Positions 7,810 through 48,089 of a DNA stretch of 64,000 nucleotides are shown here, one piece after another; the stretch's first letter is position 1; every line of letters starts with the position of its first letter. The notes below the pieces were generated by a model that saw only the letters and a list, made by a program, of their open reading frames with translations, made no database searches and was not told the DNA's origin. The position numbers were made by a program, and so were the translations under genes. The stretch lies in contig JANJGN010000052.1 in the NCBI GenBank assembly GCA_026770705.1, forward strand, positions 3,968,001-4,032,000. Reading direction: 5' to 3'. The stretch comes from Isurus oxyrinchus. Its lineage: Eukaryota.

Positions 7810-7868
7810 CTGCTGAGTGAGATATCCATCTGTTTCATTGGAGCGGACCCTCGTACTAACTGTGCTAT
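7810..7868 (+). pseudogene. 3' end of a duplicated C2 exon with AGA>TGA stop
   Basis: TGC TGA GTG AGA TAT CCA... CTA T|gtaagt matches CRVRYPSVS...TVQ of the C2 exons; 5' part lies in an N gap. Confidence 0.7.
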
Positions 7869-8547
7869 GTAAGTACAGACATCCTTCATTCCAGATTAGC
7901 TGGAATATTCTAGATTATGCATAGAAGGATCCCATAGAGAGGTATTGTGATGAGAAACAGATCATCTGTTTTTTCAGGAAAATAGTGACCAGCACAACAT
8001 TAATAACAGTTTCTGAACAGTAACACAGCGGCTTTTATTTACAGCCAAGAGACCGATAGAGCAGAGCAGGAATCACAATGTACTCACCCCCTGACAGTGC
8101 AGCACTCCCTCAGTACTGACCCTCTGACAGTGCAGCACTCCCTCAGTACTGACCCTCTGACAGTGCAGCACTCCCTCAGTACTGACCCTCTGACAGTGTA
8201 GCACTCCCTCTGTACAGACCCTCTGACAGTGCAGCACTCCCTCAGTACTGACCCTCCGACAGTGCAGCACTGCCTCAGGACTGACCCTCCGACAGTGCAG
8301 CACTCCCTCTATACTGACCCTCCAACAGTGCAGCACTCCTTCAGAACTGAACATTTGACAGTGCAGCACTCCCTCAGTACTGACCCTCTGACAGGTCAGC
8401 ACTCACTCCTTACTGAACTGAAGTGTCTGCCTGGGTTACGTGCTTTGTGGTGAAGGAACCTACATTGATATCACGCCTTTCACATTCTCAGTGTCTCTCA
8501 AAGTGCTTCACAGTCAGTGTAAGTAACTGATCTTCATTTGTTTTCAG

Positions 8548-10858: not shown

Positions 10859-10955
10859 GGTGAGATTCCAATGAATGGAAAGCAGGATTGCTTGGAGCTG
10901 GAATCTGTTTGAGTGTTGGACTGAGTGGATTCTTCATCTTCAAGTGTGTGAGAAA
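10859..10955 (+). CDS. Gene A transmembrane exon with early stop: R*DSNEWKAGLLGAGICLSVGLSGFFIFKCVRK
   Basis: ttttacag acceptor, AA|gtaagt donor; 97 nt, collinear with the gene C TM exon 33349-33445. Confidence 0.8.
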
Positions 10956-12418: not shown

Positions 12419-12552
12419 GTGAGTCACACACCACAGGATCCCCAGCCTCTCAGCTGCTCCAGTAGCCTGGTTATTGATATGGCTGCTCCAGTCCTGTATC
12501 TGCAATGTTTTATACAGTCACTCCCAAACCCAACCAAACTCACACCCAACAC

Positions 12553-14080
12553 CATTCAGAATCAATAATCAAACCCCGATCAGTATCAATAATCAAACCC
12601 CGTTCAGTATCAATAATCAAACCCCATTCAGAATCAATAATCAAACCCCGTTCAGTATCAATAATCAAACCCTGTTCAGAATCAATAATCAAACCCCATT
12701 CAGTATCAATAATCAAACCCCGTTCAGTATCAATACTCAAACCCCGTTCAGAATCAATAATCAAACCCCGTTCAGATTCAATAATCAAACCCCGTTCAGT
12801 ATCAATAATCAAACCCCGTTCAGCATCAATAATCAAACCCCGTTCAGATTCAATAATCAAACCCCGTTCAGAATCAATAATCAAACCCCGTTCAGAATCA
12901 ATAATCAAACCCCGTAAAGAATCAATAATCAAACCCCGTTCAGTTTTAATAATCAAACCCCGTTCAGATTCAATAATCAAACACCTTTCAGAATCAATAA
13001 TCAAACCCCGTTCAGAATCAATAATCAAACCCCATTCAGAATCAATAATCAAACCCCGTTCAGTATCAATAATCAAACTCTGTTCAGGATCAATAATCAA
13101 ACACCGTTCAGAATCAATAATCAAACCCCGTTCAGAATTAATTATCAAACCCCGTTCAATATCAATAATCAAACTTCGTTCAGGATCAATAATCGAACCC
13201 CGTTCAGAATCAATAATCAAACCCCATTCAGTATCAAGAATCAAACCCCGTTCAGAATCAATAATCAAACCCCATTCAGTATCAATAATCAAACTTCGTT
13301 CAGGATCAAGAATGAAACACCGTTCAGATTCAATAATCAAACCCCTTTCAGAATCAATAATCAAACCCCGTTCAGAATCAATAATCAAACCCCGTTCAGA
13401 ATTAATTATCAAACCCCATTCAATATCAATAATCAAACTTCGTTCAGGATCAATAATCAAACCCTGTTCAGCATCAATAATCAAACCCCATTCAGTATCA
13501 ATAATCAAACCCCGTTCAGTATCAATAATCAAACCCCGTTCAGAATCAATAATCAAACCCCGTTCAGTATCAATAATCAAACTTCGTTCAGTATCACTAA
13601 TCAAACACCGTTCAGATTCTATAATCAAACCCCGTTCAGTATCAATAATCAAACCCCATTCAGAATTAAAAATCAAACCCCGTTCAGTATCAATAATCAA
13701 ACCCCGTTCAGAATCAATAATCATACCCCTTTCAGTATCAATAATCAAACCCCGTTCAGTATCAATAATCAAACCCCATTCAGAATTAAAAATCAAACCC
13801 CGTTCAGTATCAATAATCAAACCCCGTTCAGAATCAATAATCAAACCCTGTTCAGTATCAATAATCAAACACCGTTCAGAATCAATAATCAAACCCCATT
13901 CAGTATCAATAATCAAACTTCGTTCAGGATCAATAATCAATCCCCGTTCAGTATCAATAATCAAACATCATTCAGAATTAAAAATCAAACCCCGTTCAGT
14001 ATCAATAGTCAAACCCCGTTCAGAATCAATAATCAAACCCTGTTCAGTATCAATAATCAAACTACGTTCAGTATCAATAA
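12553..14080. repeat. 24-bp minisatellite (cccgttcagwatcaataatcaaac)n, roughly 60 copies
   Basis: Visible tandem periodicity; explains spurious ORFs on both strands. Confidence 0.95.
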
Positions 14081-14179
14081 TTAATGTTTCTATTATGGTT
14101 GGAATTTTCGATTTGGATCAATAATACTAAACACTGATCACTCTGATTGTCACTCTGATCATTTCTGTTTCTATTACAG

Positions 14180-17755: not shown

Positions 17756-17795
17756 ATGATCGGGAAATCTTACTTTCTCTTGTCACTTCTCCAAG
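17756..17795 (+). CDS. Gene B signal peptide exon MIGKSYFLLSLLQ(V)
   Basis: Acceptor at 17714-17715, donor CAAG|gtaat; paralog at 24992-25031. Confidence 0.8.
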
Positions 17796-20700
17796 GTAAT
17801 ATCATCATCAGCTCGGATAGATTTATGTTTAACAGTCTTTGTAAAAGATCATTCTTATCTCTTTATCTCTGTAACCTCCTGCAACTCACCCAAACAACTT
17901 CCCAGATCTCTGTGTTAGTCCAATTCCGGCCTCTTGACCATCCCCCGATTCCCATCACTCCAATACTGGCGGCCGGGCCTTCAGCTGCCTGGGGCCTGAG
18001 CTCTGGAATTCACTCGCTAAACCTCGGGGATGGAGGAGATCAGATGGATTCATTTTACTGACAATCACCACGACCACATCACAGCTGCAGTGAGAATAGA
18101 CAGAGAGTCCAGCCCTCACACTTCCTGCACAGTTTCACCATAGCAACCACAATAAGGAAGTAAAATAACTGAAAGTTAAACCGAAGCCAAGCCAGTCAGT
18201 GTAGAGAGATGAGATGTTTACACAGTTTCCCTGTGTATCTTGTAGACACTGTGTTGGGTGGAAGACTGGCTTCACTAAACAGGGTCCTGAGGACCATGAG
18301 CCAATGTAGAATGAACTTGTCCACTCCTGTGTCCAGGAATCTCTTCCATCCATTGTGAAACCTTGGGGAGTTCCTTGTGTGTCCTGTAGATGGTCCACAC
18401 TGCAGCCACTGTGCCCCAGTGATGGAGGGAGTGGATATCGAGTCTAGTGGATCTACAAACTATCCAGAGTTAAATATTGATATTTCTCTCCCCAGTTGGA
18501 CTGTCACAAGAGTGGAAAGGCGACACTCCACGAGAGGTTGCAGCACAGGAAGGCTCGTGTGTACAGATTCCATGTCATTACAGTTACTCATCAAATTTAG
18601 TAGGGAGATCGCGTGTCAGAATCTGGTTGAAAGGAATAGATGTGAATCCACAGCCTAAATGGTCTATAGCCTTTCACTCCGAAGGTCACAGTCACAGGGA
18701 TCAAAGATTCCACCATCGGACCCGGCTGTCAGGAGACCTGAAAGATGGCGACTGTTCCCTGATTATAAATAACTTCAGACGGGAAGATGCGGGACCTTAT
18801 TTTTTCAGAATAGAATTTGACAATGGTCCGAGCCATAACTATTACCCTGTAACCCAGCTTCACATTTCTGGTAAGTGCTGTGTTATAATTACTCAACAAT
18901 TCACATTCAACACTTGATGGGAAATAACACAAACTGTGACGTTTACATATTAACACAAAACACAGCTTACACATCAGACACACTGTCTGATTCTCAATAA
19001 CCTGGTGATAGCTTCCAGTTCAGTCCTAAAGCAACCTCTAATACTCACTTTAATATCAATGATGAAAAGCATTAACTGTATTATCAGGTTATCCATTCCC
19101 ATCAATCTCTCCTGTCCTGTTTAAAAGTCTGACGTATCGATAAAAGAAAGATGTGCATTTCTGCAGCGCAATTTACCACCTCAGGAGGATCCAAATCCCT
19201 TCACAGCCAATGAAATTATTCCTGAATTGTAGTCACAGATGTAAAACACAGCAGGCAGATTGTGCACAGCAAGATCCAACAAACCACAAGGTGATAAATC
19301 ACCCAGATCACTGAGGAAATGAGAAGCCAGTGAACTCAAACCTCTGGTCTGATGAAGAGTCATACGGACTCGAAACGTTAACCCTGTCTTCCTCTCCACT
19401 GATACTATCAGACCTGCTGAGTCTTTCCAGCAATTTTTGTTTTGGTTTCAGATTTCCAGCATCCGCAGTATTCTGCATTTAACTCCAATCTCTGGTCTGA
19501 GCCTCTTCTCTCATCCAGTGTTCTCAATTCACATGTCTCGGAGTGAACGTGTATTAAGCTGAGAGACAGAAACACTACTGCCAAAGAGCAAGAAAATCTT
19601 TCCTGATCATTGTAACCTCTCAGTTCTGATATCATCCTTGTAAAAGTGCTTTCTCTTGTGGGACTGTGATTTCTATTTGAACTGATGCTTCACGTTATGT
19701 TTCTCTAAAAGGATCCATTCTCTTTCTGTTAGATTTCACAGATAAACCCACGATTTTCCCTGCTGAAATTATTGCAGGAAAGCGTGTGGATGTAAGCTGC
19801 ACCTTCAACACAACGTGCAATGGAACAGCAGCACCTGTCTTGACCTGGGACACTCCCACTGACGTACCTGGATCAGTCTCAAACACTGTAACTCAGCATG
19901 GTGTCACTCTGACCTATACTTCTGTTCTGACCCTGATCCCATCACTCAAACACCATGGACACACTCTCAGCTGCAGAGTGAGATATCCATCTGTTTCATC
20001 GGAGCGGACCCTCGTACTAACTGTGCAAGGTAATTACATACACTTTCATTCTACATCAGCACTCCCTCAGCGCTGACCCTCTGACAGTGCAGCCCGTTCT
20101 CAGTGTCCACATTCTCAGACCTCTCTAAGTGCTTCACAGTCGATAGAAGTTAATTGATCTTTATTTGATTATTGCTGAATGAAGAGACAAGCTGTCTAAA
20201 CTTTACATCTCGCACACACCATTCTCCACGGTAACACCTCCACCTATCAGAGACCACTTGCCAACCAATCAGCACTCTCTTCCCATTAAGTATAAATTGT
20301 TGTTCACTTTCTGTTGGTAATCCTGCGAACGTGCTTCTTGATTCCAGCCCTGACATCTTAATGTCCAAATGAACAGAACAAGTTCCAACAATGAGCTGTG
20401 GTTGGTGATTCCTCACGTTACATCCAGGGACACTGGAGACTATCAATGTGTGGCAGAGAATGAACATGGAGCAGTGGGGGTTTTCATAACCATCACTGTG
20501 GAACGTGAGTGTACACAGACTTCAACATCTCTCTCAGATTCAAACATTACACAAACACCCTCAAATATACAGAACTAAATAGACACGTGCAGACACACAT
20601 GTATGAGCAAATACAAAGACACACTCACGAGCAAACACACTAGCACACACTCCCCTGTGGTTTACCTGAGTACTGCACTGGAGAGTTGGCCTGGATTCTG

Positions 20701-22315
20701 GGATTTGTGTTCCCAATCATATTTATGGAAGTATATGGAAATTACAAAGTCTATTACAGACACTCAGATGCATAGAGGCTCTCACAGATACTCTCTGCCT
20801 CTCCAACTCTCTCTTTCCCTTTAAGAAGCTTCCTGAAAGCTAACCCTTCGAACAATCATCGGTCCCAACTCCTCCTTATCTGATTCTGTGTGATTTTGTT
20901 TGTGTATCTGAGAGTAAGAGAGAGGTGGAGAGGTTTAGTTAGAGAATTCCTGCTGGTGAAAAGCTTACATCATTTACTCACCTTTCCAGTGCACATATTT
21001 CCCAGTATGTCCAATGCCCCTGTTTATAATGATGACTGCCTATGTAAATGTCACGCTGTAGTTACATTCTCCCACCAGTGGTGGCATTGTAGCACTTAAT
21101 CCTTGTGTTTCCCAGCTTTTCAAGCAACTCCACTTCCCAGTTTGCTACACAAGCTGTGAGTTCATCAGAATTAAAATATTTCTCAAATGATAGATTTGAT
21201 AATTCATTTTATTGAAAACTTCCTCAGTGCCTCCCTGAAGGGTTTACACTCTCTGGGAAGCAGGAATAGGCTGGATGTTGGGGAGGTCATCTTTTCCCAG
21301 AGAGTAGGGATCCTTGAGAATGTGCTGTCAGTGGGTGTGGTAGTTCCTGTTTCTCTGTTGCCTTCAAGAGGGATCTGGAGTGGTTACTGACTGGGGGAGA
21401 GATCATGGAAGCGGAGAATGATACAGCACAGGAGGAGGCCATTCAGCCCATTGTGCCTGTGCCAGGTCTTTCAATGTTCTATCCAATCAGATCCACTAAC
21501 CAACACTCCACTTTGCCACCATCATCCTCCTTCAAGTGTTTATCCAATTTCCCTTTTGAAAGTTCCTATTGCATCTGCTTCCAGCGCCCTTTCAGGCAGA
21601 ACCTTCCAGATCACAACAACTCGCTCTGTCAAAACAAATTCTCCTCATCTCCACCTCCGGTTCGTCAATCTTGTCCCTCTGGTTACCGACCCTCCTGCCC
21701 CTTAAATACATCGATACTGTTCACTTCAACCAGTCCCAGTGAGAGCGAGTTCCACATTCTCCCCTCTCTCTGGGTAAAGATTGGAACTGTTCATTAAACG
21801 GGGTGTGTAAGTCCATGGGGGAGTCCATCTCGATCCTGCCCGATTCGCACACACGTCCGAGATGGATTTCCACCCTGCACTAAACGTTTCCAGAATTTTC
21901 TACAGCACAATCCTGTACACAGCGATGGAGAGAAACATTGGACAGGGAGTCCAACAGCACAATGATCCATTCTCACCAATGTTCCACGCTAAGGGGAAAG
22001 TTCCGATTGTCCACTCTTAGAGTGTTTACAATGAAAACATTCATTCCACATTGAATCCCAGTGGATGGGTCAATATTACAGCAAATGTTGCAGTGATATG
22101 AAGCTTGATTGTTCAGCCAGAGTGAGAGATTGAAAGCGGAGAGTCAGTGATGATTTCTTTCTGTGTGTTCTCTAGACAGTGGAGGAGAGATTCTGCACGT
22201 GATCCTGATCCTGGGAATACGAGCTGTGATATTCCTTGTGGCTGTGGTTATCACTATCGCTGGAGTCTGTGTCTGGGAGAGACAAACAGTGAAAGGAAGT
22301 CGACAGACTGTTTGA
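17756..22315 (+). CDS. Siglec-like gene B, activating type (leader-V-C2-[broken Ig]-TM with Arg)
   Basis: Exons 17756-17795, 18496-18870, 19733-20029 and 22176-22315 join in frame if the broken exon near 20351-20504 is skipped. Confidence 0.75.
18496..18870 (+). CDS. Gene B Siglec-type V-set exon
   Basis: GSCVQIPC, DCSLII, EDAGPYFFRIE; canonical splice sites. Confidence 0.9.
19349..19380 (+). ncRNA. Minimal hammerhead-ribozyme-like motif in a Penelope-derived insertion (19349-19480)
   Basis: CTGATGA-A-GAGTC-atacg-GACTC-GAAAC-GTTA. Confidence 0.5.
19733..20029 (+). CDS. Gene B C2-set exon
   Basis: 297 nt, near-identical to 6988-7284. Confidence 0.9.
20351..20504 (+). pseudogene. 3' half of the gene B third Ig exon; acceptor and 5' half replaced by foreign sequence (about 20168-20350)
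   Basis: HLNVQMNRTSSNNELW...YQCVAEN...TVE and the donor remain; homology to the paralog introns stops at gatctttatttg (20167). Confidence 0.8.
22176..22315 (+). CDS. Gene B TM + short tail exon: SGGEILHVILILGIRAVIFLVAVVITIAGVCVWERQTVKGSRQTV*
   Basis: gtgttctctag acceptor; phase-1 translation gives a hydrophobic helix with CGA (Arg) at 22220-22222; TGA at 22313-22315. Confidence 0.8.
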
Positions 22316-22439
22316 AGCTTTGTAGAGCAACAATCTGGTCAGTCAGTACGGACAAATAACGTGTGATGTTGGGTTAAGTTGTAAAGAAACTGGTCAGTGT
22401 CCTGGTTAGAATCACCTTCGTATCAGAGAGGCATTCCAG

Positions 22440-23035
22440 CAGAGTGGGAGCCCATTCAGCCCATTGAGTCCATGTTGTCTCTCTGTAGAGCAATCCAGTC
22501 AGTCCCATTTCCCCTCTCTATCCCCGTATCCCTGTGAGTTTATTTCCAATTGTCCGTCAAATTTCCTTTTGAAATCGTTCATCGTCTCCACTTCCACCAT
22601 CCTGGTAGGCAGCGAGTTCCAGCTCATTACCACTCGCTGTGTAAAAAAGTTCCTCCTCACATCACCCCCTCTGTCCAAAACCTTCAATCTGTGTCCCCCA
22701 GTCCTTGTACCATCAGCTAATGGCAACAGCTTCTCTTTGTCTACCTGATCTAAACCCATCATCATCTTGTACACCTCGATCAGATCCCCCCTCAATCTCC
22801 TTTGCTCCAAGGAGAACAACCCCAGCTTCTCCAACCCAACCTTGTAGCTAAAATCCCTCATCCCTGGACCCATTCTGCTCAATCTCCTCCCTAACCTCTC
22901 AAGGACCCTCACTTCCTTCCCAAAGTGAGGAGACCACAACTGGACACAATACTCTAGTTGTGACCTAACCAGAGCTTTATAAATGTTCAGCATAACCTCC
23001 CTGTGTTTGTTCTCAATCCCTCGATTTATGAAAAG
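22440..23035 (-). mobile_element. CR1 LINE 3' fragment
   Basis: YKALVRSQLEYCVQLWSP...LFSLEQRRLRGDLIEVYK...FFTQRVVMSWNSLP. Confidence 0.9.
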
Positions 23036-23574
23036 CTTATTCTTTCCATCAGCACAAACAGCAATTTCCAAGCGGACTCCCATCAGCAGACTGAGTGCAA
23101 TGAAACATCGGCATGCCTGCTTCTTAATGTACGGAGAGAATCCTGGAACGAGAGATTCTCCTTCTTCTCCTCAGCAAGCTGAAACTTTTCCTTATACCTG
23201 GTGCTCCCCAGTCCTGCTGTGTGGACACATCATAACCACGGCATTGATTAACACAAGTGATTAAAATGCTCAGGCTGTTCTGTAAATATTTACACATTAA
23301 AATTCTCATTTTACTGCAAATTCTTGGCTCAAAGACATTACTTCATGTTGTGATGATTTTCCAATCATGTGAATTATTGTGCCCATCATTATAATGGAAA
23401 CTTCCCATGTAAACATGTCACATTGTAGTTAGGCACTCCTGCCATTGGGTGGTGTGATATCAAAGCTGCCTTGCTGCTCAGAAACAGCGAGAAATATTCC
23501 TGTTCTAAATTTGAAGTTAGTGAGACAAAGGCATTAGATGCAATTTTGTGAAACTTGTACAATGTTCTTTAGAT

Positions 23575-24230
23575 AGTGCAGCACTCCCTCAGTACTGACC
23601 CTCCAACAGTGCAGCACTCCCTCAGTACTGACCCTCCAACAGTGCAGCACTCCCTCAGTACTGACCATACAAGAGTGCAGCACTCCCTCAGTACTGACCA
23701 ACCGACAGTGCAGCACTCCCTCAGTACTGACCCTCCAACAGTGCAGCACTCCCTCAGTACTGACCCTCCAACAGTGCAGCACTCCCTCAGTACTGACCAT
23801 ACAAGAGTGCAGCACTCCCTCAGTACTGACCAACCGACAGTGCAGCACTCCCTCAGTACTGACCCTCCAACAGTGCAGCACTCCCTCAGTACTGACCATA
23901 CAAGAGTGCAGCACTCCCTCAGTACTGACCAACCGACAGTGCAGCACTCCCTCAGTACTGACCCTCCAACAGTGCAGCACTCCCTCAGTACTGACCCTCT
24001 GACAGTGCAGCACTCTCTCAGTACTGACCCTCTGACAGTGCAGCACTCCCTCAGTACTGACCCTCTGACAGTGCAGCACGCCCTCAGCAACAATACAACA
24101 ATACTCTACAGTGCAGAACTCCTTTGCTGCTGACCCTCCAACAGAGCAGCACTTCTTCAGACCTGATCCTGCGACAGAGCAGCACCCCATCAGAACTGAC
24201 CCCTAATGGTGCCGCACTTGCTCAGTATTT
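23575..24230. repeat. 33-bp minisatellite (cagtgcagcactccctcagtactgaccctcyra)n; also at about 2113-2307, 8080-8410, 31830-32170, 35320-35440, 38300-38600, 50740-51075, 53000-53110, 57080-57190
   Basis: Tandem repeats seen directly; a Deu-domain SINE origin is inferred from recollection of the motif. Confidence 0.9.
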
Positions 24231-24415
24231 ACCCTGCAACAGCACAATTTAATATTAACCCTCGGAGCCATGGTAGAAAACTGACGTTACCAAATAGCAA
24301 ACAACAGAAGAGAAGCATCACAGAGTCACAATAAATAGGTCAAAAGTGTGATTATGTTGTAACGCTTTGTGGTATGAAGCACTCATTCCTACTGCCTGTT
24401 TACTCACTCCTTTGC

Positions 24416-37000: not shown

Positions 37001-38970
37001 TTATTGCAGGAGAAAGACAGCGATGGAGGAGAGAGTTTCAGGGACCAGTGACATTGCATTGACCCCCAGTCCACTCTCTGTGAATCACCAGGTACAGGAA
37101 CTGTTTACACTCACTCCAAAGCTTCAATCTCAGTGTGTAGACAACACATGTCCCAGATTCCCAGCCCAGTTACCCACTGATTTGTACCTGTGGAGTCAGC
37201 AATGGTTCAGTATCATGCTGTCTCTCTGTTATGACACAGCAACTGGTAAAGGCTGTTGTTTAAAATCCCAGAGGGAAACTTTAAACAACTGTCATAACCT
37301 ATATTTCCCAGTGGAATGTTTGAGATGCAGCTCTAAATTCAGGAATTAGACCACCGTTCTCGAGATGGTTTTATATCAAACTACATGAAACATTTATTAA
37401 TTTACACAAGTTAAATATATGCACATGGCTACAAACTAGTGTTATCATAACTTTTTAACAAATTCTCAAACTAATCTCCGCTAAGACAACCCATAGTCTT
37501 TAAGCAGATTCCAGGCAAAGCATTTTCACCTCACAAATTCCAAATGAGGTTCCTTTCACTTTGGTTCCTTTGCAGACAGGTGTAGGCTTACAGCTGCTTT
37601 GATGTTACAAGCCTCTGCTCTGCACACACAAAACTGCTCAAGTTATACCCAGCTCTTGAGTGTAAAGAAGACGGAGATTGATGGGCTCTTGATTGGTCAG
37701 GGGATCAAAGGTTAGGAGAGAAGGTGGGAGAATGGGGTTTGTGAAACATATCAGCCATGTATGAATGGTGGAGCAGACTCGATGGACCGAATGGTCTAAT
37801 TTCTCCTCCTCTGTCGTATGGTCTTATGGCTTCTGTTTGAAGGTAAATTCGCAATGTATCATCAGGACCTTTGAACTCCATCTCTTCCAATAATAAATCC
37901 CCTTTCATCGTATCAATTTTATTAGTAATATAAACGTTGATTGGTTTAAGATTTCAATCTCAGGCTTTGAATGTTTTATTTAAAAATGCAAATTACCACT
38001 TTACCTCTTTGTTTGCATCTCAAAACTACTATACATCAAAGCACACAGACTGGCTGTCTTTAATCCAATTTAAATACACACAGACACACACACAGACTAA
38101 ACCTCTGTTTAAAAAGACAGTTTGCAATTACATTACATACATTAATAGATTAATAACACTCTGTCTCTGTCCCTTCATCTCTATCTCTCTCTCTAATCCT
38201 CTCTCTGATTACAAGGTTCATGTTATTGAGCCTCACACCAGGCACCTGAGTGCAGAATCCAAGCCGTCACTCACCAGAGCCATTACCGAGGGATTGCGAG
38301 ACTGACAGAGGGTCAGTACTGAGGGTGTGCTGCACTGCTGGAGGGTCAGTACTGAGGGAGTGCTGCACTGTTGGAGGGTCAGTACTGAGGGAGTGCTGCA
38401 CTGACAGAGGGTCAGTACTGAGGGAGTGCTGCACTGTCGGAGGGTCAGTACTGAGGGAGTGCTGCACTGACAGAGGGTCAGTACTGAGGGAGCGCTGCAT
38501 TGTCGGAGGGTCAGTACTGAGGGAGTGCTGCACTGTCAGAGGTTCAGTACTGAGGGAGTGCTGCACTGTTGGAGGGTCAGTACTGAGGGAGTGCTGTACT
38601 GCCATAGGTGGTTTCTTTTCTCCGATAGGAGAGAGAGAATTAAACGAGTCTGCACAATAATTTAACCCTATCAGTACCAGTAAATGATGTGTGGATGTCT
38701 TCTGTTTCCATTTCTCTGTAGGATGAACAGAACGTGCTGATTACTGAGCCCAGGGACACAACCAGAGACACAACTAGTGAGGGGGAGACCCCAGCTCCCC
38801 GGGGTCTCTCTGAAGGTCCAGTGGGAGGCGATGTTGGACATGGGAACTCCGACAAACCAGGTGAGCATCTCTACGCCAACATCAACTTTTCAAAGCTGCC
38901 CAGTGGTGACAGGACTGTGCACAGGAGCGAGGACACGGAATACGCACAGATCAGGTTCCAGAAAAACTGA
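24992..38970 (+). CDS. Siglec-like gene C, inhibitory/switch type (leader-V-C2-Ig-TM-tail 1 or tail 2)
   Basis: Open, phase-compatible exons 24992-25031, 25926-26294, 27606-27902, 32315-32596, 33349-33445, then 34167-34248 + 35582-35830 or 37010-37091 + 38722-38970; the gap 32619-33253 could hide another exon. Confidence 0.85.
25926..26294 (+). CDS. Gene C Siglec-type V-set exon
   Basis: GSCVQMRC, DCSLII, EDAGPYYFRIE; canonical splice sites. Confidence 0.9.
27606..27902 (+). CDS. Gene C C2-set exon
   Basis: 297 nt; T|gtaagt donor. Confidence 0.9.
28090..29809 (-). mobile_element. Degenerate CR1 LINE ORF2 (endonuclease end to RT)
   Basis: VPEDWRMANVVPL..KG...NYRPVSLTSVVGK, QHGFVKGRSCLTNL, SGVPQGSVLG. 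Confidence 0.9.
29810..31796 (-). mobile_element. Internally deleted Gypsy LTR retrotransposon nested in CR1
   Basis: Diverged LTRs at about 29810-30108 and 31498-31796, PPT-like agggggaagga next to the 3' LTR, PBS-like tgggggtgaggatg, gag (WSQCVERLVFFFTAN) and integrase (PYRPASNGRAE, PAELL) remnants. Confidence 0.85.
32315..32596 (+). CDS. Gene C third Ig exon (YAPQNLSI...TVE)
   Basis: 282 nt; canonical splice sites; near-identical to gene A exons 3 and 4. Confidence 0.9.
33349..33445 (+). CDS. Gene C TM exon RRDTSKWTVGLFTAGIMLSVLLAEIFIFICVRK
   Basis: ttttacag acceptor, AA|gtaagt donor; hydrophobic helix. Confidence 0.85.
34167..34248 (+). CDS. Gene C tail cassette 1, exon a (RKTVMEERVSGTSDIALTPSPLSVKHQ)
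   Basis: ttattgcag acceptor, CAG|gtacag donor; phase 2 to 0 links the TM exon and the terminal exon. Confidence 0.75.
34384..35137 (-). mobile_element. Solo-LTR-like element (duplicated copy about 37227-38157 carries an extra CR1 tail at about 37660-37830)
   Basis: TGTTATGA...TCATGACA termini; end resembles the reverse complement of 39264-40225. Confidence 0.55.
35582..35830 (+). CDS. Gene C tail cassette 1, terminal exon (...EEFLYANPQV...EETEYAQIRFEHN*)
   Basis: tgtctgtag acceptor; Siglec-like tandem Tyr motifs; AATAAA at 36386-36391. Confidence 0.85.
   Translation, partial: GKQNVLITEPQNIKRDATGEGETPAPRGLSEDAVGGDVGHGNPDKSEEFLYANPQVLRMSSGDGSVHREEETEYAQIRFEHN
37010..37091 (+). CDS. Gene C tail cassette 2, exon a (RKTAMEERVSGTSDIALTPSPLSVNHQ)
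   Basis: Duplicate of 34167-34248 with intact splice sites. Confidence 0.75.
38722..38970 (+). CDS. Gene C tail cassette 2, terminal exon (...EHLYANINF...EDTEYAQIRFQKN*)
   Basis: ttctctgtag acceptor; open frame; YxxI and TxYxxI motifs. Confidence 0.85.
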   Translation, partial: DEQNVLITEPRDTTRDTTSEGETPAPRGLSEGPVGGDVGHGNSDKPGEHLYANINFSKLPSGDRTVHRSEDTEYAQIRFQKN

Positions 38971-42259: not shown

Positions 42260-42700
42260 AAGTTTTTGAAGTGTCCGGCACAGTTTTCTAAAGCTCCCCT
42301 CAGACCCCACCTGTAGTCACTGGGGTCAGTCCTGGACCCCGCACCTCAGGGAGGATATATTGTCCTCGGAGGGGCTGCAGCCCAGAGTCACCAGAACGAT
42401 CCCGGGGCTGAAAGGGTTAAATCCCGAGGACAGGTTGCACAGACCAGGCTTGTGTTCCCTCGAGTCTCGAAGATTAAGGGGTGATCTAATCGAGGGGTTT
42501 AAGATGATTAAAGGATTCGATGGGGTCGATAGAGAGAAACTATTTCCCCTGGTGGTAGGGGTGAGGTGAGGGGGTGGGGGTGGGGGGTGGGGGTGGGGGT
42601 GAGGTGAGGGGGGGTCCAGAACAAGGGGGCAGAACCTTAAAATTGGACCCAGGCCGTTCAGGGGGTGATGTCAGGAAGCACTTCTTCACACAAAGGGGGA
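42260..42700 (+). mobile_element. CR1 3' fragment (also about 11985-12243 on + and 60710-61170 on -)
   Basis: SLESRRLRGDLIEGFKMIKGFD...RKHFFTQR. Confidence 0.85.
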
Positions 42701-45700
42701 TTAGGAAAGGGATGAGGAGGGGGATGAGGAGGGGCATGAAGAGAGAGATGAGGAGGGGATGAGGAGGGGGATGAGGAGGGAGAGGAGGAGGAGGATGAGG
42801 ATGGGATGAGGAGAGGGATGAGGAGGGTGATGAGGAGGAGGTTGAGGAGGGGATGAGGAGGGGGATGAGGAGGGAGATGAGGAGGAGGATGAGGAGTGGG
42901 ATAGGGAGGGGGATGAGGAGGGGATGAGAAGGGGAAGAGGAGGGGATGAGGAGGGAGATGAGGAGGAGGATGAGGAGGGGGATGAGGAGGGAGATGAGGA
43001 GGGGATGAGGAGGGGGATGAGGAGGGAGATGAGGAGGAGGATGAGGGGGGATGAGGAGGGGAATGAGGAGGGGATGATGAGGGGATGAGGAGGGGATGAG
43101 GAGGGAGATGAGGAGGGAGAGGAGGAGGGGATGAGGAGGGGGATGAAGAGGGGGATGAGGAAGGAGATGAGGAGGAGGATGAGGAGGGGATGAGGAGGGG
43201 GATGAGAAGGGGATGAGGAGGGGGATGAGGAGGGAGTTGAGGGGATGAGGAGGGAGATGAGGAGGAGGATGAGGAGGGGATGAGGAGGGGGATGAGGAGC
43301 GAGTTGAGGACGGGATGAGCAGGGCGATGAGGAGGGGGATGAGGAGGGGGATGAGGAGGGAGGTGAGGAGGGAGATGAGGAGGGGATGAGGAGGGGGATG
43401 AGGAGGGAGATGAGGAGAAGGATGAGGAGGGAATGAGGAGGGGGATGAGGAGGGGATGAGGAGAAGGATGAGGAGGGAATGAGGAGGGGGATGACGAGTG
43501 GATGAGGAGGGGGATGAGGAGGGGATGACGAGGGGAAGAGGAGGGGGATGAGGAGGGAGATGAGGAGGGGATGAGCATGAGGAGGGGGATGAGGAGGGGG
43601 ATGAGGAGGGGGAAGAGGAGGAGGAAGAGGAGGGAGATGAGGAGGTAGATGGGGGGATGAGGAGGAGGATGAGGAGGGGAATGAGGAGGGGGATGAGGAG
43701 GGGGAAGAGGAGGGAGATGAGGAGGTAGATGAGGAGGGGGAAGCGGAGGGGATGATGAGGGGATGAAGAGGAGGATGAGGAGGGGAATGAGGAGGGGGAT
43801 GAGGAGCGAGATGAGGAGGGGACGAGGAGGGGGAGGGGGAGGTGGAGGGGGATGAGGAGGGGAATGAGGAGGGGGATGAGGAGGGGATGAGGAGGGAGAT
43901 GAGGAGGAGGATGAGGAGGGGATGAGGAGGGGATGAGGAGGGAGATGAGGAGGAGGATGAGGAGGGGATGAGGAGGGAGATGAGGAGGAGGATGAGGAGG
44001 GGATGAGGAGGGGGATGTGGAGGGAGATGAGGTGGAGGATGAGGAGGGGATGAGGAGGGAGATGAGGAGGAGGATGAGGAGTGGATGAGGAGGGGAATGA
44101 GGAGGGGATGATGAGGGGATGAGGAGGGGGATGAAGAGGGAGATGAGGAGGAGGATGAGGAGGGAGATGAGGAGGAGGATGAGGATGGGATGAGGAGAGG
44201 GATGAGGAGGGTGATGAGGAGGAGGATGAGGAGGGGATGAGGAGGGGGATGAGGAGGGAGATGAGGAGGAGGATGAGGAGAGGATGAGGAGGGGGATGAG
44301 GAGAGGATGAGGAGGGGGATGAGGAGGAGATGAGGAGGGGATGAGGAGGGGGATGAGGAGGGGATGATGAGGGGAAAAGGAGGGGATGAGGAGGGAGATG
44401 AGGAGGGGATGAGGAGGGGATGAGGAGGGGGATGAGGAGGGGATGAGGAGGGAGATGAGGAGGGGATGAGGAGGGGATGAGGAGGGGATGAGGAGGGGAT
44501 GAGGAGGAGGATGAGGAGGGGATAAGGAGGGGGATGAGGAGGGGATGAGGAGGGAGATGAGGAGGTGGATGAGCAGAGGGATAGGGAGGGGGATGAGGAG
44601 GGGATGAGGAGGGAGATGAGGAGGAGGATGAGGAGGGGATGAGGAGGGGGATGAGGAGGGAGTTAAGGACGGGATGAGGAGGTGGATGAGGAGGGGGATG
44701 AGGAGGGGATGAGGAGGGGGATGAGGAGGGTGATGAGGAGGGGATGAGGAGGGGGATGAGGAGGGGGTTGAGGAGGGAGATGAGGAGGAGGATGAGGAGG
44801 GGATGAGGAGGGGGATGAGGAGGGAGATGAGGAGGAGGATGAGAAGTGGATGAGGTGGGGGATGAAGAGGGGATGACGAGGGGAAGAGGAGGGGGATGAG
44901 GAGGGAGATGAGGAGGGGATGAGCATGTGGAGGGGGATGAGGAGGGGGATGAGGAGGGGGAAGAGGAGGAGGAAGAGGAGGGAGATGAGGAGGTAGATGA
45001 GTGGGGATGAGGAGGAGAATGAGGAGGGGAATGAGGAGGGGGATGAAGAGGGGGAAGAGGAGGGAGATGAGGAGGGGGAAGCGGAGGGGATGATGAGGGG
45101 ATGAAGAAGAGGATGAGGAGGGGAATGAGGAGGGGATGAGGAGCGAGATGAGGAGGGGGACGAGGAGAGGGAGGGGCAGTTGAAGGGGATGAGGAGGGGA
45201 ATGAGGAGGGGGAAGAGGAGGGGATGAGGAGGGAGATGAGGAGGAGGATGAGGAGGAGATGAGGAGGGGGATGAGGAGGGAGATGAGGAGGAGGATGAGG
45301 AGGGGATGAGGAGGGAGATGAGGAGGAGGATGAGGAGGGGATGAGGAGGGGATGAGGAGGGAGATGAGGAGGAGGATGAGGAGGGGATGAGGAGGGAGAT
45401 GAGGAGGAGGATGAGGAGGGGATGAGGAGGGTGATGAGGAGGGAGATGAGGAGGAGGATGAGAAGGGGATGAGGAGGGGGATGAGGAGGGGATGATGAGG
45501 GGATGAGGAGGGGGATGAGGAGGGATATGAGGAGGGGGATGAGGAGGGATATGAGGAGGAGGATGAGGAGGGGATGAGGAGGGGGTTGAGGAGAGTGATG
45601 AGGAGATGAGGAGGGGATGAGGAGGGGGATGAGGAGGGAGATGAGGAGGAGGATGAGGAGGGGATGAGGAGGGGGATGAGGAGGGGATGAGGAGGGAGAT

Positions 45701-46880
45701 GAGGAGGGGGATGAGGAGAGGGATAGGGAGGCGGATGAGGAGAGGATGAGAAGGGGATGAGGAGGGGGATGAGGAGGGGATGAAGAGGAGGATCAGGAGG
45801 GGAATGAGGAGGGGGATGAGGAGGGGAAGAGGAGGGATATGAGGAGGTCGATGAGGAGTGGATGACGAGGGGATGAAGAGGAGGATGAGGACGGGAATGA
45901 GGGGGGAATGAGGAGGGAGATGAGGAGGGGGACAATGAGTGGGAGGGGGATGAGGAGGTGATGAGGAGGGAGATGAGGAGGGGAAGAGGAGGGGGAGGGG
46001 GAGGTGGAGGGGGATGAGGAGGGAAATGAGGAGGGGGATGAGGAGGGGATGAGGAGGGAGATGAGGAGGAGGATGAGGAGGGGATGAGGAGGGGGATGAG
46101 GAGAGGGATAGGGAGGGGGATGAGGAGGGGATGAGAAGGGGATGAGGAGGGGGATGAGGAGGGGATGAGGAGGGAGAAGAGGAGGAGGATGAGGAGGGGA
46201 TGAGGAGGGGGATGAGGAGGGAGATGAGGAGGAGGATGAGGAGGGGATGAGGAGGGGGATGAGGAGGGAGATGAGGAGGAGGAGGAGGAGGAGGAAGGGA
46301 TGAGGAGGGGGATGAGGAGGGAGATGAGTAGGAGGATGAGGAGGGGATGAGGAGGGGGATGAAGAGGGGATGACGAGGGGATGAGGAGGGGGATGAGGAG
46401 GGGGATGAAGAGGTGATGAGGAGGGAGATGAGGAGGAGGATGAGGAGGGGATGAGGTGGGGATGAGGAGGGGATGAGGAGGGGATGAGGTGGGGGATGAG
46501 GAGGGGGATGAGGAGGGGGGTGAGGAGGGAATGAGGAGGGGATGAGGTGGGGGATGAGGAGGGAGATGAGGAGGGGGATGAGGAGGGGGGTGAGGAGGAC
46601 GATGAAGAGGGGGATGAGGAGGGGATAAGGAGGGAGATGAGGAGGAAATGAGCAGGGGGATGAAGAGGGGGATGAGGAGGGAGATAGGGAGGGAGATGAG
46701 TACGGGGATGAGGAGGGGGATGAGGAGGGGAGGAGGAGGGGAGGGGATGAGGAAGGGGATGAGGAGGGGGATGAGGAGGGGGATGAGGAGGGGGATGAGG
46801 AGGGGGATGAGGAGGGGGAGGGGATGAGGAGGGGGATGAGGAGGGGGATGAGCAGGGGGAGGGGGATGAGGAGGGGGAGG
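42700..46880. repeat. About 4.2 kb purine-rich (gaggagggrat)n simple repeat
   Basis: Almost C-free G/A/T array. Confidence 0.95.
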
Positions 46881-48089
46881 AGACACAGGGTCTTCACCAT
46901 TGACCACCCACCTCTCAAATGGGCCTTTCTGAAGGCCCCGCTTTTTATCGGTGCCCGAGGGACCCGACCCCCACCGGGCCCTCCCCTGACCCCTCACCGC
47001 TCCGGGGTCACCCAGTCAGACTGCTATTCTAGACCACATCACCCCTCCCCACCCCCAACACCACCACCACCACCACCCCCACCCCCACCCCCACCCCCAC
47101 CCCCACCACCATGACCGACCCACCCACATCCCCCGACCCCTGGACCACACATCGGAATCCGGGACTGACATGTTTAGAGGTGGAGTTGGCGGGGCCGGGA
47201 ATTCTGCCGTCTCTGTGTCCCCCAACCCGGGACTGAAAATCTGGCCTTAACTTCCACTTTCTAGTGTCTGAGACAAGAGGCAATGAGTGAGTGGGCTGAC
47301 GGTCAGGATTAATGCTGTTAATCTGTGTTTGAGGGGCTGTGAATTCTCGGGGGACTAGTTACTCTCTGAGCAGCAGCTTCCAAATCCTTATTTGATGCCG
47401 TGCATGTGGGGTTGGAAGATTATTTTTAAAACCACAGGCAGTTCACAGAAACCCACAGGAAACCCACAGAGAGACAGTCACTGAGAAAGTCACTCACTCC
47501 TTGTGGTTTCACCTTTTAACCACATCCTGTCTGTGTGCCTTAAATGTTAAACACACCGGCCACACTCAGGGAGGTTTCACTNNNNNNNNNNNNNNNNNNN
47601 NNNNNNNNNNNNNNNNNNNNNNNNNNNNNNNNNNNNNNNNNNNNNNNNNNNNNNNNNNNNNNNNNNNNNNNNNNNNNNNNNNNNNNNNNNNNNNNNNNNN
47701 NNNNNNNNNNNNNNNNNNNNNNNNNNNNNNNNNNNNNNNNNNNNNNNNNNNNNNNNNNNNNNNNNNNNNNNNNNNNNNNNNNNNNNNNNNNNNNNNNNNN
47801 NNNNNNNNNNNNNCAGACAGACACAAACACACTCACATTCTCACATACACACATTCACTCACACACTCACACACACATGCACAAACACACACACAAAGAC
47901 AATATCCCAACAACAGCAAACTGCGATTAAGAGCTTCCTACAACTTAACTAACAGACCAAAGATGTATTGAACACTCTAAAAGTGACCTGTTTTTCAAAG
48001 AAATACAAGATTGTACTCAGATGAAAAATGGCTGACACAAGTCATCTGATTGCTGATACTGTGAAGTTGATCACTTCTCTGGAAAGGTT

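Follow-up and report, generated by a model that had tools for sequence, protein, structure and literature searches.

The window analysed here comprises 64,000 nucleotides of Isurus oxyrinchus DNA (contig JANJGN010000052.1, positions 3,968,001 to 4,032,000) and contains three Siglec-like genes, which we labelled A, B and C. Our subject is the transmembrane (TM) exon of gene B, which carries an arginine within the predicted membrane span, and the receptor family to which this exon belongs. The parts of gene B and the TM exons of genes A and C lie on the forward (+) strand, and all features are numbered by their position in the window. Gene B possesses an intact Siglec-like frame of 283 amino acids in the order leader, V-set domain, C2-set domain and TM segment, with four intact coding exons and intact splice sites. 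The coding part of the leader exon (17756..17795, ATG at 17756) was taken from the gene model, and the joint 17795>18496 was found in two of the sequencing runs described below (X1 and X2). It is followed by a Siglec-type V-set exon (18496..18870; Pfam V-set and Ig_CD22), joined to the next exon (18870>19733) in 4 of 4 runs, and by a C2-set exon (19733..20029; Pfam C2-set_2) that is about 98% alike over all TM classes. A 5'-truncated remnant of a third immunoglobulin-like (Ig) exon, Ig3, lies at 20352..20504; it is 94% identical to the Ig3 exon of gene A and is skipped in the gene B form.

The 14 best solved-structure matches of the V exon were all Siglecs, sialoadhesin being the first and Siglec-5 the next, with Siglec-10 and MAG also among the best; the contig is unplaced. 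The motif FRIE of gene B, which contains the F-strand Arg, aligns with FRFE of sialoadhesin, and a Trp of gene B aligns with the N-terminal Trp of sialoadhesin. The F-strand Arg and the A-strand aromatic residue are what we take to be the ligand residues of Siglecs. By its sequence features, i.e. a V-set followed by a C2-set domain in a type I membrane protein, gene B is a Siglec.

The Arg-type transmembrane exon and its splicing

The TM exon spans 22176..22337. A pyrimidine tract and the acceptor AG (22174..22175) precede it, and in phase 1 it reads (D)SGGEILHVILILGIRAVIFLVAVVITIAGVCVWERQTVKGSRQTV up to the stop codon at 22313-22315; coding sequence extends to 22315, followed by 22 bases of 3' untranslated region (UTR). 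The codon of the intramembrane Arg is CGA (22220..22222). In the lamniform, catshark and bamboo-shark copies tested, the Arg is followed by 18 uncharged residues and then by Glu. The tail of gene B beyond the last hydrophobic residue has 12 amino acids and no Tyr. The sequence, phase and coordinates that an initial annotation had proposed for this Arg-bearing exon and its tail were thus correct. The same annotation had called the exon hidden. This is true of open reading frame lists, which miss it because its open frame has only 53 codons, and untrue of the NCBI models of other sharks, which include it. For the TM peptide there was no match among solved structures, and matches in the Atlas were sub-threshold only. 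A non-coding last exon starts at 23053 (23053..23246, end not mapped), and its joint 22337>23053 (GT..AG) was seen in runs X2 and X7. The 3' UTR intron (22338-23052) starts 22 bases past the stop codon; according to the 50-55 base rule it would escape nonsense-mediated decay.

The exon had also been claimed to be unrelated to the TM exons of genes A and C, and shuffle tests agree. Compared with the A and C exons, the score of the gene B exon was reached by 121 and 639 of 1000 shuffles, respectively, at the protein level and by 70 and 44 of 1000 at the DNA level. For A against C none of 1000 shuffles reached the score, such that A and C are related to each other, and the gene B exon is by these tests unrelated to both.

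Splicing was assessed by mapping 8 of 22 candidate sequencing runs, 7 of which, from 6 studies, were presumed to be RNA (their status was guessed). The acceptor in front of 22176 was used in all 7 presumed-RNA runs. The joint 20029>22176 (GT..AG), which connects the C2 exon to the TM exon, was found in 6 of these (X1, X2, X5, X6, X7 and X9), while run X8 instead joins the Ig3 donor at 20504 to 22176. In X5, X7 and X8, from three studies, the contigs extend over at least 31 letters on either side of the joint, and a single 850-base contig of X7 spans the C2 exon, the TM exon and the non-coding exon from 23053. Since the copies are near-identical and the RNA status of the runs is presumed, this evidence holds for the family and not for the gene B copy. 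A retrocopy as source of the joint was rejected: the large, DNA-like run X19 had no such joint among the rows listed, and one of its contigs crosses the acceptor.

Partner genes, copy number and state of the family

The neighbouring genes carry other anchors. Gene A has an uncharged A-type TM exon (10859..10955), a type with 100 copies, and contains an in-frame TGA at 10861-10863. Among the A-type exons sampled besides it, 17 of 18 have an open frame and one is frameshifted. With the TGA at the start of its TM exon, gene A could encode a secreted form or be null; it also has the end of a second, partial C2 exon at 7810-7934, after a stretch of N. Gene C has a C-type TM exon (33349..33445), and TEYAQI is encoded by its tail exons at 35582-35830 and 38722-38970. 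There is a Glu within its span, a variant shown by 2 of the 22 C-type exons sampled. Its cytoplasmic exons are tandemly duplicated (33554-34815/36397-37657 and 35281-35838/38446-38978, 95% and 82% alike), which would provide two alternative tails of the type of the immunoreceptor tyrosine-based switch motif (ITSM). The predicted tail exons of the partner genes, in other sharks as well as in the window, contain SxYxxL/V and TxYxxI motifs. These are of the type of the immunoreceptor tyrosine-based inhibitory motif (ITIM) and the ITSM, as defined in the available part of PMC13358205.

Further elements of the window include long tandem and low-complexity repeats, intronic and intergenic (12548-14084, 23572-24240 and 42540-47015), and, at 61137-61502, a short frame that is V-set-like but of another type, resembling MAG/sialoadhesin, after which retroelement-like frames follow.

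Ectodomains do not distinguish the classes. V domain identity was 89.0% within the Arg class, 88.6% between classes and 88.8% within the other classes; for C2 the respective values were 97.9, 97.7 and 97.9%. With near-identical ectodomains, an ITIM/ITSM tail in one class and a basic TM segment with a short tail in the other, the Arg class and the ITIM/ITSM classes have the features of paired receptors, and by these features they form a very large paired-type receptor family.

The exact sequence pattern surrounding the Arg codon had 217 matches in the assembly (control pattern: 0), and 212 of these keep the Arg as CGN; a protein search for the Arg-type exon gave 237 candidates. The A/C-type pattern had 331 matches, and a pattern for the start of the C2 exon had 526, roughly the sum of the TM exons of both kinds. 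Contig C52 (4.17 Mb) alone holds at least 66 Arg-type and at least 93 other TM exons, i.e. at least 159 of the approximately 550 in the assembly. The assembly-wide totals are probably inflated, since contigs C546, C646 and C838 show identical repeated spacings, as allelic or segmental duplicates would.

We sampled 60 of the 66 Arg-type loci on C52, reading 8 kb per locus; a set of 30 top-scoring loci was not used for counts, as it had been picked for likeness. The acceptor was intact in all 60 loci and the Arg present in 58, and one copy was frameshifted. The ectodomains varied, with one, two or three V exons (V, VV or VVV) and with C2 present or absent. Within the 8 kb read, 24 of the 60 loci were strictly intact, 22 of them with the Arg. 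Of the intact V exons, 51 of 54 in Arg-type loci and 72 of 77 overall kept the F-strand Arg. Full Ig3 exons were present in 9 instances, and 52 were 5'-truncated with their cut at one common alignment position; because Arg-type loci contain both, B-type genes likely descend from a V-C2-Ig3-TM(Arg) form through loss of an acceptor. Ig3 number also varies elsewhere in the cluster: C-type genes at L112, L122, L126 and L129 have six to seven complete Ig3 exons in tandem within 10 kb, corresponding to a wide variation in stalk length.

Broken exons were more frequent in Arg-type loci than in others, with 33 of 132 full-length V/C2 exons broken versus 1 of 44 in other-type loci (Fisher p 3e-4). The latter sample covers 40 of 93 loci, only 20 with a full C2 and with A types over-sampled. 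By eye, there were about 20 distinct lesions among 37 rows; as lesions are shared among copies, the p value is overstated.

Origin and exchange of the exon

NCBI models that terminate in the Arg-type exon come from Carcharodon (91-96%), a smooth-hound, two catsharks and the bamboo, epaulette and whale sharks; every shark homologue retrieved keeps the Arg. Its presence in three shark orders indicates from sequence comparison that the exon is old. Among 94 matches, many of which had no TM segment at all, the representatives of basking shark, horn shark, sevengill and skate did not show the exon. A similar Arg anchor occurs in two stingray models, with a score that none of 1000 shuffles equalled; this is a weak lead to homology which, if true, would date the module to before the shark-ray split. 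Four skate Siglec-like models (P0063, P0064, P0071 and P0075) have an uncharged TM segment and a tail of fewer than 10 residues without Tyr, as a third, signal-less class would.

The exon is not tied to one ectodomain. In carpet sharks it ends CD33-like, CD22-like and sialoadhesin-like models (predictions, which could be chimeric), and two carcharhiniform SLAM-like proteins (P0116 and P0118) carry it. In the Isurus genome a SLAM-like gene on the 118-Mb, chromosome-scale contig C21 contains a homologous exon together with about 300 bases of the upstream intron: positions 21880..22298 of the window match G000:C21:89447206-89447634 with 67% identity over 434 bases (blastn, E 4e-30). This SLAM-like copy looks broken, with a stop in V and polar residues in the span. 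The shared intron implies copying at the DNA level of the exon together with its acceptor; such direct evidence for the transfer of a signalling module between families of receptors is rare. With four kinds of ectodomain carrying it, the Arg exon is, as judged from these records, portable between receptor families. On unplaced contigs (L149-L158; G000:C795, C962, C87, C133, C219, C225, C790 and others), SLAM-like C2 exons form an additional family with multiple copies, perhaps another expanded receptor family.

The ectodomains themselves group by shark lineage and not by TM type. For each of 10 Arg-type C2 domains, non-Arg genes of the same lineage are on average closer than Arg-type genes of other lineages, and a single clade of Arg-type C2 domains was rejected by the approximately unbiased test (p-AU 0.0025) in a tree in which few forks were resolved. 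This tree comprised 39 rows under a simple model; four Carcharodon, Cetorhinus, Mustelus and catshark near-duplicates were dropped, as were some of our own and of the ray rows. The initial annotation had inferred that an activating TM exon was grafted onto a shared ectodomain. As a process this is supported by the SLAM-like locus and the four ectodomain kinds, and the grafting appears to be ancient. It does not stand as a recent local origin of gene B, for which the three shark orders and the Ig3-form ancestry leave little room and the likeness of the ectodomains is better explained by exchange. The shared ectodomain has likely been kept by continuing exchange between the classes, for which gene conversion and repeated recombination both fit.

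Adaptor choice and competing explanations

We propose that the Arg-type exon supplies a spliced membrane anchor to one class within a very large shark Siglec-like family. The V domain of this class would bind sialic acid. As the tail of gene B has no motif, a signal would need an adaptor: the buried Arg would pair with the two Asp of a signalling dimer that carries ITAM (immunoreceptor tyrosine-based activation motif) sequences, most likely FcR-gamma. The class would then activate, by a Syk-type route, where its look-alike partners would inhibit, and it could serve as a counter-trap for microbes that engage the inhibitory partners. Ectodomain exons would be continually exchanged between the classes, with the activating class decaying faster. 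We consider this explanation as a whole fairly probable. For the earlier claim that gene B is an activating receptor, the anatomy gives good support, i.e. the conserved Arg, the motif-free tail, the ITIM/ITSM partners and an FcR-gamma-like gene in the genome, and the docking of an adaptor stands as a prediction.

The FcR-gamma-like gene is known here from one TM exon alone, which contains Cys and Asp and occurs in two near-identical places (L092 and L093; G000:C1723 and C1648). The genome also contains a zeta-like exon, likewise with Cys and Asp, and each of the two best matches its namesake. A 2014 report, in the part available, found no FcR-gamma in sharks (PMC4016189), a negative on which the Isurus exon bears. 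A DAP10 family search of the genome gave 16 weak matches, none convincing. According to the accessible sections of PMC1440944 and PMC13107469, FcR-gamma favours an N-terminal Arg and DAP12 a central Lys. Polar residues stand 4-5 places ahead of the Arg in Carcharodon and SLAM-type copies, which suggests a late helix start with the Arg near position 5, i.e. the FcR-gamma pattern of PMC1440944 (same sections); for the Carcharodon form the hydrophobicity scan gave a depth of 1-6. When the TM peptide was modelled in complex with two FcR-gamma-like exon products, the score was 0.08 against a mark of 0.34, and the result was not used either way. On balance we predict FcR-gamma or zeta with slightly better than even confidence, DAP12 being a clearly weaker candidate and another adaptor or none improbable.

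Several observations weigh against this explanation. The uncharged stretch is 29 residues long, and a rough hydrophobicity scan places the Arg anywhere from position 2 to 11. Gene B reads LGIR, without the Asn three residues before the Arg that defines the NxxR motif of FcR-gamma-type anchors (PMC6557307, as far as available), and we infer adaptor binding and signalling from the anatomy. Disruptions were found in 36 of the 60 sampled Arg-type loci and in all 15 sampled V exons of the gene B subfamily, and letters 18539-40 of the gene B V exon occur in no contig of four runs (X1, X2, X5 and X6). V exons show no excess of amino-acid change (ratio of amino-acid-changing to silent variation, pN/pS, 0.64, and about 1 in the variable loop). 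Paralogous copies of the TM exon show no purifying signal, with 13 amino-acid-changing versus 3 silent distinct coding variants (one frameshifted copy excluded). The 300 intron bases upstream of this exon are 98% alike across copies and the next 300 only 89%. Since the adjoining intron is equally uniform and amino-acid changes are not depleted, the uniformity of the copies is not evidence of selection, and their near-identity shows homogenisation.

The missing letters, the 15 broken V exons and the absence of any strictly intact locus of the single-V/C2/truncated-Ig3 form among the 60 sampled would also fit a gene B that is silent, as a not-yet-decayed member of a dying subfamily within a real class. 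Yet all four coding exons, the splice sites and the frame of gene B are intact, and the runs derive from other individuals or a related species, with contigs that drop rare variants. We regard a silent gene B as a serious possibility that falls somewhat short of even; it does not compete with the family-level explanation. The idea of a recent local graft, with a duplicated gene A or C receiving a foreign TM exon, draws on the likeness of gene B to A/C-type loci, which ends at about 20600, just past the Ig3 remnant. It is highly improbable: the same exon has 217 copies, a form that bears Ig3 is present in RNA and at 9 of the 60 loci, and a one-off recent event is refuted by the cross-species records that carry the same exon.

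Other alternatives concern what the Arg does. The activating class could use DAP12, which serves mammalian activating Siglecs (Siglec-14, -15 and -16) according to the parts available of PMC13358205 and PMC6288428. Some scan windows place the shark Arg at 7-11, and a bat Siglec-14 record (P0111) has its Arg at a similar computed depth, at position 6-8. However, DAP12 prefers a central Lys by the rule in the PMC1440944 sections, to which Siglec-14 is an apparent exception, and the shark residue is Arg; moreover, the exon is unlike the bat anchor. Homology with the latter was rejected, as the two did not align and 975 of 1000 shuffles scored as well. We therefore find DAP12 use rather doubtful. 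An unlikely alternative is a non-signalling decoy or uptake receptor, in which an Arg at the outer edge docks nothing and the ligand is internalised or the inhibitory partners are outcompeted. The 18 uncharged residues after the Arg nearly make up a full span, some windows put the Arg at position 1-2, and Siglec-1 is described as lacking a signalling domain in the portion seen of PMC13358205. Against it, the Arg is constant among the shark homologues retrieved, whose neighbouring residues vary (although the codon here contains CpG), FcR-gamma partners with an Arg at position 3 also appear in the PMC1440944 sections, and the transfer onto several ectodomains fits a signalling module. A wider reading, that sharks have an anchor of their own shuffled among Siglec, CD22-like and SLAM-like genes, in the largest paired Siglec system known and using FcR-gamma rather than DAP12, we put forward tentatively, as a possibility somewhat on the weaker side. 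If true, the paired Siglec logic would either match the jawed vertebrates in age or have two origins, and the family would have hundreds of genes, about two in five of them activating-type.

Comparison with known receptor systems

The NCBI models of Carcharodon, Scyliorhinus and Chiloscyllium end in the same exon (80-96% identical peptide) with the same C2-to-TM junction. Their names were assigned automatically, e.g. "sialic acid-binding Ig-like lectin 7/12/13/14" or "CD33-like", and mark neither the activating class nor a family hundreds strong. A description of paired Siglecs in sharks was not found in the open literature; subscription journals could hold one.

The closest parallel for a mobile anchor is the NxxR module, in which one Arg TM exon is reused by expanding Ig families (LILRA, FcalphaRI, GPVI, NKp46 and OSCAR; Xenopus XFL and SLAM-like proteins). 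The shark exon shares with it an acidic residue at the C-terminal end and a short tail, as described in the available portions of PMC6557307 and PMC2413239, which report no NxxR module on Siglec ectodomains. Unlike that module, the shark anchor has no Asn three residues before the Arg and no DYT. The shark anchor is likely a module parallel to the NxxR type.

As paired receptors, the shark genes resemble primate Siglec-5/-14 and Siglec-11/-16, which likewise combine near-identical V-C2 ectodomains with an ITIM/ITSM tail in one member and a basic TM segment with a short tail in the other. Concerted evolution and frequent null activating copies are common to both systems (PMC6288428, PMC5701461 and PMC13358205, each as far as available). 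In contrast to the primate pairs, tandem V exons (VV, VVV) are frequent in the shark, the adaptor may be FcR-gamma, and the anchor has no sequence likeness to the Siglec-14 anchor compared, which was that of a bat. The use of FcR-gamma by activating Siglecs and a faster turnover of activating members thereby become testable. Primates have two such pairs, whereas the shark has about 200 Arg-type versus about 330 other TM exons, which carries the paired Siglec principle beyond two primate gene pairs into the cartilaginous fish, and on a much greater scale.
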